Of a DNA stretch of 64,000 nucleotides, positions 17,731 through 39,004 are shown piece by piece. The DNA is from Vampirovibrionaceae bacterium NZW_1234 (GTDB lineage: Bacteria; Cyanobacteriota; Vampirovibrionia; Vampirovibrionales; JAGQHJ01): positions 79,598-143,597 of the forward strand of contig JBGUGD010000001.1 in NCBI GenBank assembly GCA_041697335.1, read 5' to 3'. The notes below the pieces were generated by a model. It was given only the letters and a program-made list of their open reading frames with translations. It had not been told where the DNA came from and made no database searches. Position 1 is the first letter of the stretch, and every line of letters begins with the position of its first letter. Position numbers and translations under genes: made by a program.

Positions 17731-18048
17731 TTATCGTCCGACTTCCAGGACGACATCGCCATGGATGCGACATTGACAGGATAAACGGTCATTGGGGTCG
17801 AGGTAGAAGACGGCTTCCTCAACAACGGTTTTGGGGCATATGTTTTCCATCCCCTGAAGGACGGTAACCACACAACTGCAACAGGCTCCGTTGCCGCCAC
17901 AGCGATCATGGACATTGATGTCCAGTAGATGTGCCGCCTCTCGCAGCGTGGTTTCACCGTCAATTTCAATTTCCAGGTTTTGGGGTGTAAAACGGACTTT
18001 GGGCATGAGTCTAATGGTTTGTTGCTCTGTAAATATCGTGCTTTTCAT
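17731..18048 (-). CDS. 2Fe-2S ferredoxin
   Basis: CGGNGACCSC...C.C cysteine pattern of the 2Fe-2S ferredoxin fold; start assumed at MKSTIF. Confidence 0.6.
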   Translation of the reverse strand: MKSTIFTEQQTIRLMPKVRFTPQNLEIEIDGETTLREAAHLLDINVHDRCGGNGACCSCVVTVLQGMENICPKTVVEEAVFYLDPNDRLSCQCRIHGDVVLEVGR

Positions 18049-18151
18049 TGTATCGGATCGCCGCCTTTGGGACAAAAAGAAAAAACCGAAGGGGTGACCT
18101 TCGGTAGGGTAATGTGTGTGTGTTGTCAGACATGGGGTTTGTGGGAAACTT

Positions 18152-18550
18152 TTAAAAAGCGGATTCGTAGAAGGTGATAACAGGCGGTTGACCATTGTTC
18201 TGGTGAACAACCGTAATCACGTCAAACGACACTTGATTGTATTGAAAATCTGGCTGCGTAGCGAGGTACGCTTCTGCTAAAATCCTGATTTTCTCTTGCT
18301 TTACTGGCGTTATTGCCTCATGTGCTTCTCCATACTTCGTATTTCGACGTGTCTTCACTTCTACAAATTTAAGGGTTAACGTTTTCGGGGAATACGCAAT
18401 GATATCTATTTCGCCAAACTGACCGTATCTCCAATTACACTGAAGGATTTCGAACCCAGCTTGTTCTAGGAATACCCTTGCGAGGGATTCACCGTGTTGA
18501 CCTAATTGACGAGACTTCACTCTGGCCTTAACAACACAAACACTACAATG
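18152..18550 (-). CDS. yraN: YraN-family (UPF0102) endonuclease-like protein
   Basis: GESLARVFLEQAGFEILQCNWRYGQFGEIDIIAYSP...FVEVKTR is the YraN signature; N-terminal extent uncertain. Confidence 0.65.
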   Translation of the reverse strand, partial: HCSVCVVKARVKSRQLGQHGESLARVFLEQAGFEILQCNWRYGQFGEIDIIAYSPKTLTLKFVEVKTRRNTKYGEAHEAITPVKQEKIRILAEAYLATQPDFQYNQVSFDVITVVHQNNGQPPVITFYESAF

Positions 18551-19314: not shown

Positions 19315-19632
19315 TTAAATGATTTGTGTCCCATCCGGCACGCCGTGATCGCCAAAGCTAAGCCGGATAACGCTTAATATGCTTTCTATTAGCTCTTCCT
19401 GACTTTGGAACTCTTCTTGCGGACTGTCATGAAGAATGTCAGCCAAAACCATGGACTCTGTCTGGGACCATTGGATTTCCAGCGGCCCGATATGTCTCAT
19501 CAATTCAGGCTTGCGGGCCGGGAAGCGAACTTGGGCCAAGGCGTCGTTTAAGCTATCCAGATTGCTGGTAAGGTTTGGCTCAGCCGTATCGGGTTGAGTT
19601 AATTTGGGTTCGTCTTGTTTTGACTTGGCCAT
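19315..19632 (-). CDS. DUF2795-like small protein
   Basis: VRFPARKPELMRHI and an acidic C-terminus resemble the DUF2795 family. Confidence 0.4.
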   Translation of the reverse strand: MAKSKQDEPKLTQPDTAEPNLTSNLDSLNDALAQVRFPARKPELMRHIGPLEIQWSQTESMVLADILHDSPQEEFQSQEELIESILSVIRLSFGDHGVPDGTQII

Positions 19633-19810
19633 GGTGTCTCCCCCCTGTTTTGAGCACTTCGCTGTCCAGACTGTCTCTCTCGGACGTTCTGGTCTTTGAT
19701 TACTTTACCCTACCTGGCGGGGGTGGGTGTATTCACTGAAAGACGGATCACCCCGGAGGGTTCTTTTTCCTATTCTTTTCTATATAGGATGGCGGCGATG
19801 TCCCGACACG

Positions 19811-19843
19811 AAAAAAATCCCTGTGATGTTGCCGTCACAGGGA
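19811..19843 (-). terminator. intrinsic terminator of repeat unit 0 (3' end of the small-ORF transcript)
   Basis: Minus-strand tccctgtga-N8-tcacaggga hairpin followed by U7. Confidence 0.7.
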
Positions 19844-19859
19844 TAGGGATTTTTCCCTA

Positions 19860-19890
19860 CAATCGTACATTGGCTATGGGTTAAGTTAAA
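19860..19890 (-). ncRNA. conserved about 30-nt core element, copy 0 (3'-UTR position of the small ORF)
   Basis: caatcgtacattggctatgg(g/a)t(t/a)a(g)... is shared by three loci, always immediately 5' of a terminator on the minus strand. Confidence 0.5.
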
Positions 19891-19986
19891 GCGAAAATGA
19901 GTAGTAACTGCTACTTAGCCCCAAGATTGCAGGGAAACAACATAGCTCGTGTATTGCCGCCCCAAAGTAGGGGGCGGGTTTCGGTT

Positions 19987-20166
19987 CTAAGCTTCCGTCC
20001 AGAGGCGCTGGTTGCTGTTGGGTGCGCCAGTCAAAAGGTTACCGCTGATCCCACCACCAAAGCTGCTGGCCGTGTCATTGGAGACCCCGTTAAAGCTATT
20101 GCTTGGAGGGAAGGTGGTTTTCATTACGTTTGCTGAACCGCCCATTGCGCTCATACTGCATGCCAT
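19987..20166 (-). CDS. unannotated small ORF, 59 aa, Gly/Ser/Asn-rich (MACSMSAMGGSANVMKTTFPPSNSFNGVSNDTASSFGGGISGNLLTGAPNSNQRLWTEA)
   Basis: AAGGAG RBS 7 nt upstream of the ATG; sigma70-like promoter TTCTTG-17-TATAAG; terminator downstream; falls below the 60-aa ORF-track cutoff. Confidence 0.55.
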   Translation of the reverse strand: MACSMSAMGGSANVMKTTFPPSNSFNGVSNDTASSFGGGISGNLLTGAPNSNQRLWTEA

Positions 20167-20216
20167 TGGTAGACTCCTTTTCTTGTTTCCTACTAACCTA
20201 ACTGAAACGTTATATT

Positions 20217-20245
20217 CTTATAATAATGAATTGTTGAAACAAGAA
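20217..20245 (-). promoter_or_regulatory. putative sigma70-type promoter of the small ORF (TTCTTG-17 nt-TATAAG)
   Basis: Hexamers and spacing read directly from the minus strand, about 50 nt upstream of the RBS. Confidence 0.45.
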
Positions 20246-20410
20246 GTGTCTTCTGGCCTACAAATTTAAAAAGAAAATAAAAAAACGTGGTGGCGTGGGT
20301 TGCATCTTTGCCCGAAAAGCCTCAAGGCATGGGCCATTTGCCTATTGTTACGGTTTCTGGAAGTGAACATTTATGCCTGTAATTTTCCAGGTGCCACAGG
20401 GGGGCTGGAC

Positions 20411-20443
20411 AAAAAAGAAAAACCCTATGGAAGTCATAGGGTT
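20411..20443 (-). terminator. intrinsic terminator of repeat unit 1
   Basis: Minus-strand aaccctatgacttccataggg hairpin followed by UUUUUCUUUUUU. Confidence 0.7.
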
Positions 20444-20445
20444 AA

Positions 20446-20576
20446 CAATCGTACATTGGCTATGGATAAGTCGTTAAGAGTAAGATCGATTTAGCGTGTT
20501 TTCTGTGAGAGTAGAGTTTCGATACTTTTATTATGTCAAATTGATGTGTTGCTTTCTGTCGGGTAGCCAACAAATT
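20446..20576 (-). ncRNA. sRNA-like repeat unit 1 (63-nt conserved 5' block, about 36-nt variable region, conserved 30-nt core, terminator)
   Basis: Near-identical to unit 2 at a 297-300 bp offset; no ORF; terminator orientation fixes the minus strand. Confidence 0.5.
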
Positions 20577-20706
20577 TGTTCAGCGGACTCAAATTCGTCT
20601 TCGGAGTTTATCCGAAGCGTCTGAAACCCTTTTTAGATCTGGGTTTGAGGTGGTTTACATTTCGCAATCATCCTGCTCTCCAAGCGCGTTCCTCTAAAGG
20701 ACGGAC

Positions 20707-20737
20707 AAAAAAAAGAAACCCTATGGTGAGCATAGGG
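20707..20737 (-). terminator. intrinsic terminator of repeat unit 2
   Basis: Minus-strand ccctatgctcaccataggg hairpin followed by UUUCUUUUUUUU. Confidence 0.7.
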
Positions 20738-20742
20738 CGAGA

Positions 20743-20876
20743 CAATCGTACATTGGCTATGGATAAGTCGTTATGAGAGAGAGGTTTAGAGTTTTGGTCT
20801 GAAGAGATGTGTTGAGTTTCGATACTTTTATTATGTCAAATTGATGTGTTACTTTCTGTCGGGTAGCTGACAAATT
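20743..20876 (-). ncRNA. sRNA-like repeat unit 2
   Basis: Same architecture as unit 1; the 63-nt block differs at 3 positions, the core is identical, and the middle about 40 nt differ. Confidence 0.5.
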
Positions 20877-20900
20877 CGACGGACTCCTCGGGTAATCCTG

Positions 20901-20947
20901 AAAAAACCGCCTAAATGCTCTCCACGAGAGGCAAAAAGGCGGTTTAC
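20901..20947 (-). terminator. intrinsic terminator of the 20992..22233 gene
   Basis: aaccgcc-N-ggcggtt hairpin followed by a U-run on the minus strand. Confidence 0.6.
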
Positions 20948-20991
20948 AAAAGTTAAAGATTGAAGGCTTACAGCGAAATCAAGCCCGTCTG

Positions 20992-22152
20992 TTATTTGAA
21001 ATAGGCGCTGACTTGCTTGTCTTCAGCATAACAGCTCCCGTTCCAGCGATAGACATAGATCGGGTGGTAAGGGTCTTTGTCAAACTGGCGAACCACAATT
21101 TCCATCTTGCCGTCGCCATCAATGTCTTCGGTAATATGGGGGCCTTTGTGGGATTTCAGTTCCCCGATCACCTGGTTTTTCCCGTTGAGAATACGAACCT
21201 CATAGGGGGCGTTGGGCGTGCCGGTTAAAAAGAAATTGATGGAATCGGTCGTGCCGTCCTGATCCAAATCCAGCGATTTACTGGTTTTCAGTTGGTTCCA
21301 GTTGACGGGTGTCGAACTGAAGGAGCATGTCTGCGCAACTTCCGGGGGACGAGATGTCGCGGTTGTTGTACTCTGGTCCGACTCTACCGTGTTGCCATCA
21401 GCCATGGACAAGGCCATCAGCGCACTATTGGGGCTGGATGACGTCGCACCGTAGGGAACATAAATGGTCGTCACGTCTTCATTAATTAAGCTGCTATAAG
21501 CTTCATAAGGCTTCAGTCCTTCCAAAATGCGCACATAGCTGGGCCATACACCGGGTTTCATATCATCGCGGTTAAAAATCAGGGCATCTTTCAGCTTGTA
21601 GCCCACATCCATCTTGCGGGTGGTCATGGCATCCGGCGGCGCGTTTTCAAAGATAATGTCCGTATCGACCTGGGCCAAGCCATAGGCCAGGCTGGTATAG
21701 GGGGAGCCGATTTTATCGTTGGCTTTTCTCAGGAAGAAAAGGCCGTTCTTATTGGCTTCCATCACCAGTTGGGCGTATCCATAGTCGAAAAACTTGATGG
21801 GGTCATTTTCATTGGTCAAATAGCGGGCTTTCAAAGCCTTCATCAGCTTTGCACGCTCTTCGGGAATCTGGCCATAGGCTGCATAGGCCCGTCGAAGGGT
21901 CTCCATATGCAGGAGCAGCGAATCGGTCGACGTCATAAACTCATAGGTTCCGTCTGCCGTTTGGACAGCCTGGTCCAGGCCTTCGGCTTGGGGGACACTG
22001 GACACTTCCAACGGAACTGTTCTAAGCAGCATGGGCTTTTCAGTAACCGTGGTTGACGTTGCTTCCAGTGCGACATCTTCAGCCTTGCCGGGTGCCAGGA
22101 GGGCTGTTGTTAATGTTAGCGCCAGCATGGAGGCAAAGGTGGTTTGCTTCAT
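20992..22152 (-). CDS. secreted hypothetical protein (signal peptide; C-terminal DGDG/FG-GAP-like segment)
   Basis: MKQTTFASMLALTLTTALLAPGKA signal peptide; start assumed at MKQ. Confidence 0.5.
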   Translation of the reverse strand: MKQTTFASMLALTLTTALLAPGKAEDVALEATSTTVTEKPMLLRTVPLEVSSVPQAEGLDQAVQTADGTYEFMTSTDSLLLHMETLRRAYAAYGQIPEERAKLMKALKARYLTNENDPIKFFDYGYAQLVMEANKNGLFFLRKANDKIGSPYTSLAYGLAQVDTDIIFENAPPDAMTTRKMDVGYKLKDALIFNRDDMKPGVWPSYVRILEGLKPYEAYSSLINEDVTTIYVPYGATSSSPNSALMALSMADGNTVESDQSTTTATSRPPEVAQTCSFSSTPVNWNQLKTSKSLDLDQDGTTDSINFFLTGTPNAPYEVRILNGKNQVIGELKSHKGPHITEDIDGDGKMEIVVRQFDKDPYHPIYVYRWNGSCYAEDKQVSAYFK

Positions 22153-22833
22153 CCAACTCAGTGACCGGTTGTCCATAGAACACACTCCTCTAAAATCGCT
22201 TGCTTTTGGACTTACATGGCCCCATATCACCATATCGGGGCAGATTTGATTTTCTTTATCATGGCCTCTCTCTATATATAGAATAAAGGGAGGTCATTTG
22301 TCTGAAAGTCATCCGATCTCAATTATAAGGAAAAGCCTCAAATCGGGGGACGGGGGCGTAACGATCTTCAATGACGAGGTCGTTGGCAAGGAGGTTCCGA
22401 TAGGGGGAATTTCCCCGACTCCGAACCGGCTTCACCGGGGAGACTGATCGAAGCCTTCATGGGGCGCCCTCTGCCATGGGCTGAGGACAGGAAAGTACCG
22501 CTAGACAAAGGATTTGTTTTCTGGCACAATAAACCAGCCTCGCCATACCCAACCCGATCGGGAGTGACCCCTGATCCGGAACTGCGATGAGACCGGGCTC
22601 GGTTTTTGCCCTCAAGAACCAAAGATGCGCCCCGCGCTGTGGTCGCCCACAGAAATCATAACGATGGTCTTGATCCTGTTTTTTGTTTTGGTTATGGTGT
22701 TGGTTCACACTGTATGGCACGGCGAATTTCGGTCGCTCGCCACACCAGTTACGAAAACGTAAGAAGCTACAGAGTCAAAACGTAACGAACACGGTACGAA
22801 ATAAGTAAAGAAAGCTGAGAAAGTACAGAAAGC

Positions 22834-38932: not shown

Positions 38933-39004
38933 GCGTCCTTAGCTCAGCGGTAGAGCACTCCCCTTTTAAGGGATAGGTCCTGAGTTCGAATCTCAGAGGA
39001 CGCA
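38933..39004 (+). tRNA. tRNA-Lys (anticodon UUU)
   Basis: Cloverleaf GCGTCCT/AGGACGC acceptor, GCTC/GAGC D-stem, anticodon loop CTTTTAA, T-arm CTGAG-TTCGAAT-CTCAG; no encoded CCA. Confidence 0.85.

Follow-up and report, generated by a model that had tools for sequence, protein, structure and literature searches.

The 64,000-nt stretch of contig JBGUGD010000001.1 analysed here (the window), from Vampirovibrionaceae bacterium NZW_1234 (GCA_041697335.1), contains a tract at 19810-20880 on the minus strand in which three paralogous units follow one another within ~1.1 kb, in the order 2, 1, 0 along that strand. A 413-aa FG-GAP-repeat gene (20992-22233, minus strand) is the upstream neighbour of unit 2, and a 105-aa DUF5789/DUF2795-like gene (19315-19632) directly follows unit 0 in the same orientation. 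What the units have in common is an invariant core of 21 nt, of the type ACCATAGCCAATGTACGATTGT on the minus strand, that is present in three copies within 900 bp (19859-19879, 20445-20465 and 20742-20762) and adjoins an intrinsic terminator in each of them. Read on the plus strand, the 20-mer CAATCGTACATTGGCTATGG matches exactly at 19860, 20446 and 20743, the positions given in a preliminary description of this DNA, and no further copy is found in the 64 kb at up to three mismatches (0.01 expected). That description had put the core common to all units at 30 nt; the part that is invariant in all three measures 21 nt, and a 32-nt identity is restricted to units 1 and 2. This is a genuine, non-random feature with a probable function.

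Units 1 and 2 are indeed tandem duplicates of ~300 bp, with a spacing of 297-300 bp, and both are assembled from the same parts in the same order. Each begins with a conserved 5' block (minus strand, 20811-20876 in unit 2 and 20511-20576 in unit 1), the near-identical, TTGACA-containing block noticed earlier, which we define as a 66-nt direct repeat of 94% identity and which reads AATTTGACATAATAAAAGTATCGAAAC within its minus strand. The block is followed by a variable middle, 37 nt with a single G in unit 2 (20774-20810, minus strand) and 34 nt, also G-poor, in unit 1 (20477-20510, minus strand), and then by a 3' module of 32 nt, UAACGACUUAUCCAUAGCCAAUGUACGAUUGU (minus strand, 20742-20773 in unit 2 and 20445-20476 in unit 1), of which the invariant 21 nt occupy the terminator-proximal part (20445-20465 in unit 1).

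The identity between units 1 and 2 varies strongly from part to part. It amounts to 38% in the upstream spacer, to 58/65 in a MAFFT alignment or 62/66 without gaps in the 5' block (89-94%), to 20/37 in MAFFT (about 54-65%) in the middle, to 32/32 in the 3' module and to 30/39 in the terminator region, where the stems are 100% identical. The middles, described before as completely different, are by alignment strongly diverged homologues: the 20/37 matches between the 34- and 37-nt sequences go with a global alignment that was equalled by just 14 of 2000 shuffles. This mosaic identity indicates an old duplication in which two blocks were held constant, and it would fit selection on the promoter or 5' end and on the 3' module. 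The core of unit 0 agrees with that of units 1 and 2 at 21/21 positions within alignable flanks of ~70% identity (manual count, alignment A4). Since 21 consecutive identities have a probability of about 6e-4 at a background of ~70%, either the sequence of the core is under constraint or conversion of short tracts has made its copies uniform.

All three copies of the core adjoin a hairpin with a U-run on the minus strand, as had been proposed, and all three stems give strong folds (z -4 to -5). The terminator of unit 2 lies at 20704-20738 (minus strand; stem 20718-20738, U-run 20704-20717; -10.8 kcal/mol, z -4.6) and that of unit 1 at 20408-20443 (minus strand; stem 20421-20443, U-run 20408-20420; -12.1 kcal/mol, z -4.1). 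In unit 0, a mini-hairpin at 19844-19859 precedes the terminator proper (together 19810-19859, minus strand; stem 19817-19844, U-run 19810-19816), and the fold that includes it reaches -22.9 kcal/mol. The stems of units 1 and 2, previously held to be different, are the same stem (CCCTATG/CATAGGG in DNA, CCCUAUG/CAUAGGG in RNA), and their loops alone differ. Unit 0 has the homologous helix with one compensatory change from A-U to G-C (columns 61/76, AU in two copies and GC in one) in addition to the inserted mini-hairpin of 16 nt. With a covariance model built for the 3' module together with the terminator, the three copies reach 100.6, 100.4 and 68.5 bits, and the next match in the window, at 20.1 bits, is a plain terminator with a similar U-tail (18071-18161).

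Unit 0 carries its core and terminator at the 3' end of a 59-codon open reading frame (ORF), again as described before. This frame, ORF59 (19987-20166, minus strand), starts ~240 nt past the terminator of unit 1, is preceded by a strong Shine-Dalgarno sequence (AGGAG, 20174-20178) 7 nt before its ATG, and specifies an orphan product of 59 aa rich in G, S and N (MACSMSAMGGSANVMKTTFPPSNSFNGVSNDTASSFGGGISGNLLTGAPNSNQRLWTEA). Its 3' untranslated region (UTR; 19859-19986, minus strand, fold z -3.7) ends, in its distal part, in the core (19859-19879). We found no homologue of ORF59 among 5.8 billion protein clusters, a collection that includes ORF59 itself as a called protein (P0055), and no Pfam match. 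The HMMER matches it does have are repeat proteins, reached through a low-complexity motif of 14 residues (PPSxS[FY]NG[VI]xxxTA) that is repeated in a 607-aa protein, and residues 7-44 give a separate weak match to a 2718-aa YadA-type adhesin. Right after the ORF59 stop codon stands a 7-bp all-GC hairpin (CCGCCCC...GGGGCGG, 19957-19977) without a U-run on the minus strand, which may be a processing or stability element between the coding part and the core-bearing distal 3'UTR. Homology of the ORF59 promoter region to the 5' block shared by units 1 and 2 was also considered; the MAFFT alignment is suggestive, and the similarity is not significant (p about 0.08-0.13).

How would units 2 and 1 be transcribed? 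The FG-GAP gene ends in a strong intrinsic terminator of its own (20901-20945, minus strand; -22.5 kcal/mol, z -4.2; stem AAACCGCCU/AGGCGGUUU, then UUUUUU), so that unit 2 is shielded from read-through and transcription downstream of this point requires its own promoters. The perfect TTGACA of the 5' block is not followed by a usable -10 element at a distance of 16-18 nt. The same block contains TGaCATAAT (20830-20838 in unit 2, 20530-20538 in unit 1), a good extended -10 that is probably the promoter of both units. From this candidate promoter we infer starts near 20823 in unit 2 and 20523 in unit 1, which would give RNAs of about 120 and 116 nt, respectively. The predicted RNAs contain 9-12% G compared to 27% in the window, the whole tract showing a GC skew of +0.2 on the plus strand, and without their terminators they fold no better than shuffled sequences (z -1.7 and -0.4). 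Low G content and weak folding would fit RNAs that pair in an unstructured state. The 3' module is likewise predicted to be single-stranded but for a marginal 4-bp stem (CAAU-GUACG-AUUG), and the middle of unit 2 includes a CU-rich, anti-Shine-Dalgarno-like stretch, CCUCUCUCUC.

Outside the window, no related sequence was found in the collections that we searched. The core 20-mer has 0 matches in the GTDB genomes (185,579 species, each represented by one genome) and none in the JGI metagenomes. A core 18-mer matches once, within a 725-aa ORF of Chitinophagaceae, and a 20-mer from the 5' block also matches once, inside an ORF; both were judged to be chance. In 2.9 million viral contigs there are 0 matches to this core 18-mer or to three 20-mers taken from the middles, and phage and plasmid collections searched with the tract by blastn returned nothing. 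In six loci of relatives that contain an FG-GAP homologue (<=59% identity), other genes follow this homologue directly and none has a comparable non-coding tract; the best model score there, 17.6 bits, is driven by a terminator. This match lies in locus L003 of a distant relative (20572-20644, plus strand, GCA_025449835.1), in the region where a 124-aa gene without relation to the tract has its terminator, and its GCCAAAUUACUUG, set against GCCAAUGUACGAUUG, is the only core-like sequence outside the window; we judged it to be noise. As far as public data show, the tract thus appears to be lineage-specific.

We favour, with a probability of roughly 55%, a reading in which two tandem sibling small RNA (sRNA) genes and the mRNA of a small protein share the 21-nt pre-terminator element, and most likely the system is a new representative, narrow in distribution, of a familiar class of regulators. 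Units 2 and 1 would each be transcribed from the extended -10 promoter in the 66-nt block into non-coding sibling sRNAs of roughly 115-120 nt, with a short conserved 5' end, an unstructured, G-poor, C/U/A-rich and diverged body, the single-stranded 3' module of 32 nt and the terminator. Unit 0 would be the ORF59 mRNA, which, in full or as a fragment derived from its 3'UTR, would bear the core and the homologous terminator. The RNAs may act in trans through base pairing, and their CU-rich bodies, for instance CCUCUCUCUC in unit 2, would be suited to purine-rich ribosome-binding sites. The core beside the terminator could be the place where all three transcripts bind an RNA-binding protein or RNase, or it could be a pairing site that they have in common; either way, its function would tie both sRNAs and the ORF59 mRNA to one regulator.

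Several points weigh against this reading. The expression of units 1 and 2 is a prediction from the sequence, and a two-hexamer -35/-10 scan does not flag TGaCATAAT, the promoter being a consensus reading. The evidence from covariation amounts to a single base pair. No related sequence exists in the genome, metagenome, viral, phage and plasmid collections, and phylogenetic support is absent to that extent. Against 64 translation-initiation regions of the window, the duplex energies of the 5' end, both middles and the 3' module are no better than those of shuffled queries, nor does the longest stretch of perfect complementarity, on either window strand, exceed what shuffles give. With only two non-coding copies, patchy gene conversion could also yield mosaic identity. 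Finally, our model leaves unexplained the absence of stop codons from one plus-strand frame that crosses the core, over 69, 59 and 59 codons upstream of the respective copies.

What would the presence of such RNAs mean? If expressed, units 1 and 2 would be the first, and easily testable, sibling sRNAs in the non-photosynthetic sister lineage of cyanobacteria. They would also be an unusually clean example, in that the invariant, single-stranded element beside the terminator, shared with a neighbouring mRNA, would point to a specific RNA-binding partner. Such a pointer would be useful here; we know of no RNA chaperone established for Melainabacteria/Vampirovibrionia, and a literature search returned nothing on regulatory RNAs in these groups. 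The practical weight of the observation is limited by its basis in one uncultured genome, by the absence of conserved relatives and by a regulatory pattern that is well known.

At the level of families, the units stand apart. No model of Rfam 15, which includes OmrA-B, Qrr, PrrF, NsiR1 and Yfr2, matches at the units at gathering scores, and a scan of 19650-21000 with the threshold relaxed to E<=10 gave nothing. In photosynthetic cyanobacteria, the NsiR1 tandem array and the Yfr2 family are multi-copy sRNAs with Rfam families, and the NsiR1 repeats carry their own promoter and terminator. Similar to these, units 1 and 2 would be multi-copy sRNA genes, in the same phylum-level lineage, whereas they lack an Rfam match even at E<=10 and consist of two non-coding copies without a regular short period. 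DapZ, an sRNA derived from a 3'UTR, has a GcvB-like seed. It compares with unit 0 in that the 3' end of an mRNA bears the same element and terminator as independent sRNA genes (here, the predicted ones), and differs in that the element shared here is an invariant block of 21 nt whose role we can only infer. LhrC1-5 and the csRNAs of Firmicutes are multi-copy, partly tandem, CU-rich sRNAs directed against Shine-Dalgarno sequences. Units 1 and 2 also have G-poor, C/U-rich stretches, predicted to be single-stranded, that could pair with ribosome-binding sites; unlike LhrC and the csRNAs (the csRNAs are listed in PMC4211561), they have no shared repeated UCCC-type motif, no homology to these families, and a pairing with ribosome-binding sites of the window that is no better than that of shuffles.

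The preliminary description had likened the layout to Qrr or OmrA/B. Its general plan is borne out: units on the minus strand, each with a promoter-like block of its own, a middle under less constraint, a conserved core before the terminator, and the intrinsic terminator itself. The likeness to OmrA and OmrB holds in that the ends are conserved and the centre has diverged; membership in an Rfam family is not found, and a Qrr-type sigma-54 (-24/-12) site (TGGCAC-N5-TTGCW-like) is absent upstream of the units on the minus strand, the count of such sites in the window being that expected by chance. OmrA and OmrB share their first 21 and last 35 nt around a divergent centre (PMC4211561). Like them, units 1 and 2 would be adjacent genes on the same strand for sRNAs of ~80-120 nt, each with its own promoter (predicted here) and intrinsic terminator, and with near-identical 5' and 3' ends around a divergent centre. 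In contrast to OmrA and OmrB, which occur in Enterobacteriaceae, hosts from an unrelated phylum, and match neither in sequence nor by covariance model, this locus also has the 3' element in the 3'UTR of a neighbouring mRNA. PrrF1/PrrF2 of Pseudomonas aeruginosa and AbcR1/AbcR2 of Rhizobiales are tandem sibling sRNAs, and PrrH is a longer read-through product of the PrrF pair (PMC4211561). Units 1 and 2 are similarly duplicated in tandem, ~100 nt apart, and may give a longer read-through product, but those siblings are similar over their full length, whereas the present ones are mosaic and have no Rfam match. Because no family model matches, the resemblance to OmrA/B, PrrF and AbcR is one in the way the units would work and not in membership.

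Among the alternatives, it is possible, though in our judgement unlikely, that the units are non-functional relics: a small gene would have been duplicated in tandem along with its promoter and terminator, two copies would have lost the coding part, the terminators alone would matter, and the conserved patches would reflect gene conversion or chance. This would agree with the orphan, low-complexity nature of ORF59, with the negative target searches in the window, with the absence of the tract from relatives, where other genes directly follow the FG-GAP homologue, and with the non-significant resemblance of the sequence preceding unit 0 to the 5' block. However, neutral decay would hardly produce spacers of 38% identity next to blocks of 94-100%, or a 21/21 core in flanks of ~70%, and the compensatory change keeps the terminator helix intact. 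In addition, units 1 and 2 contain no trace of ORF59-like coding sequence.

A cis-acting array of leaders or attenuators is a less likely explanation still. Here the terminators would gate read-through into ORF59 and the 105-aa gene, with the core as sensor or antiterminator. All units and both downstream genes do have one orientation, and, as read from the sequence, CAUAG of the core can pair with CUAUG in the 5' arm of the unit 1 and unit 2 terminators; read-through of tandem sRNA genes also has a precedent in PrrH from prrF1-prrF2 (PMC4211561). This alternative pairing of 5 bp nonetheless would compete with terminators of 8-9 bp and is absent from the predicted folds, even a threshold of E<=10 brings up no family of riboswitches or leaders, and ORF59 has its own AT-rich, promoter-like region ~240 nt beyond the unit 1 terminator.

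Do the units encode proteins? Coding potential had been denied to units 1 and 2, and none of their open frames is supported as a gene; frames with TTG starts do run through the units, however, with lengths of 37-38 aa (minus strand) and 62-66 aa (plus strand). The minus-strand ORFs (37 aa, 20460-20573; 38 aa, 20757-20873) run from the block into the core, read M[L/S]ATRQK[A/V]THQFDIIKVSKL...TTYP, and stay in frame because the middles differ by exactly 3 nt. They have no conserved Shine-Dalgarno sequence, all four differences in the block are non-synonymous, and in unit 2 a promoter does not fit between the FG-GAP terminator and the TTG. These ORFs probably follow from the low G content of the units.

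The plus-strand ORFs (19696-19884, 20300-20494 and 20576-20776) end in NRTLAM(D/G) and belong to stop-free frames that read the core as NRTLAM(G/D) (19654-19884, 20270-20494 and 20567-20776, plus strand). They are the basis of a coding or type I toxin-antitoxin-like interpretation, in which the plus-strand ORFs would encode small proteins and the minus-strand RNAs would be antisense partners overlapping their 3' ends; we consider this very unlikely. Type I loci are often tandemly multiplied, and the same frame is open at all three copies, which in dinucleotide-preserving shuffles has a probability of 0.06-0.10 per segment and, jointly and for any of the three frames, of about 1.4e-3, a post hoc value. 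Yet the plus-strand frames have TTG or GTG starts only, with neither ATG nor Shine-Dalgarno sequence, and no plus-strand terminator was found at the units. Similarity between their peptides is restricted to stretches of identical DNA, units 1 and 2 use different frames for the homologous hairpin, and no clear transmembrane segment or hydrophobic helix is evident by eye in the translations. Concatenated, the five hypothetical peptides of both strands have neither a relative nor a self-entry among the 5.8 billion clusters, where ORF59 and the FG-GAP protein of the same contig are present.

There is a slim chance that the locus represents something new in kind, either because the core is the handle of an undescribed RNA-binding effector with interchangeable, guide-like segments of ~35 nt or because the locus is a new sense/antisense small-protein system. 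If the effector-handle variant were true, the two RNAs and the ORF59 mRNA would form a small programmable regulatory or defence module in Vampirovibrionia. Guide-RNA-like cassettes in the stricter sense, with the variable middle as guide and the constant 3' module as handle for an effector encoded elsewhere, seem extremely improbable to us. Their constant-variable-constant layout, the ~35-nt middle and the invariant handle adjoining a terminator would suit the idea. However, the constant parts before and after the middle do not represent the same repeat, no regular array is formed, and the middles are mutually alignable, G-poor and of low complexity, with 0 exact 20-mer matches in the 2.9 million viral contigs. 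Known guide scaffolds are also far longer than this handle. The preliminary description was right that the tract is not a CRISPR array: TRF finds no array, the spacings are 586 and 297 bp, and the constant flanks are different sequences. It had also noted that no nuclease gene is nearby; Pfam searches of the 42 larger ORFs of the window, several of which have no match, identified no family of cas, TnpB/IscB, transposase, integrase or reverse transcriptase.

Fragments of a mobile element, such as a miniature inverted-repeat transposable element (MITE), a repetitive extragenic palindromic (REP)-like element or integron attC sites, might be suggested by repeated sequence with a hairpin and by orphan small ORFs between the repeats, but are hardly credible given that the copies are confined to a 1.1-kb tract of the 64-kb window, that terminal inverted repeats are absent around the units and the core has no inverted partner, that neither integrase nor transposase was found nearby, and that the collections gave just two chance matches inside ORFs. 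A MITE or dispersed repeat was specifically rejected, with no inverted repeats flanking the units and no dispersed copies in the window or the public collections, and so was an attC array, the core having no inverted partner beyond the hairpin and the scanned ORFs no integrase.

The surroundings of the tract are ordinary chromosomal DNA. Where the 42 larger ORFs have Pfam matches, these are to housekeeping functions, including the ribosomal protein cluster S13-S11-S4-RpoA-L17 (22.8-25.8 kb), adenosine deaminase, asparagine synthase, ThyX, SepF, CrcB, homoserine dehydrogenase, histidine kinases and an AcrB pump. The only Rfam match at gathering score in the whole window is a tRNA (38933-39004). 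The homologues of the 413-aa FG-GAP protein stem from metagenome-assembled genomes labelled Cyanobacteria bacterium or Vampirovibrio sp., which identifies the host as a non-photosynthetic relative of cyanobacteria (Melainabacteria/Vampirovibrionia). Among the 5.8 billion protein clusters the closest relative reaches just 59% identity, which leaves this genome in phylogenetic isolation as far as public data go.

Three further observations concern the vicinity of the units. The spacer of ~110 nt between units 2 and 1 (20590-20700, minus strand) contains two unremarkable hairpins (AAACCC...GGGUUU and CUUCGGA...UCCGAAG) and a 12-codon ORF, MIAKCKPPQTQI, behind a GGAG. Its stretch TGTAAACC(A/G)CCT is also present in the terminator region of the FG-GAP gene, which suggests that the ancestral 300-bp duplication took in that terminator. 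The 105-aa DUF5789/DUF2795-like neighbour and the hydrophilic ORF59 may hint toward a neighbourhood of small stress proteins, to which the RNAs might belong. Lastly, the intrinsic terminator at 18071-18161 (minus strand) follows a UPF0102/YraN-like gene, is built of the stem ACCGAAGG...CCUUCGGU plus UUUUUUCUUUUUGUC, and has a U-tail nearly equal to those of units 1 and 2, in line with its 20.1 bits under the covariance model. It lies inside a mechanically listed 159-aa ferredoxin ORF with a TTG start (17731-18210), and the true start of that ORF is therefore probably further downstream.

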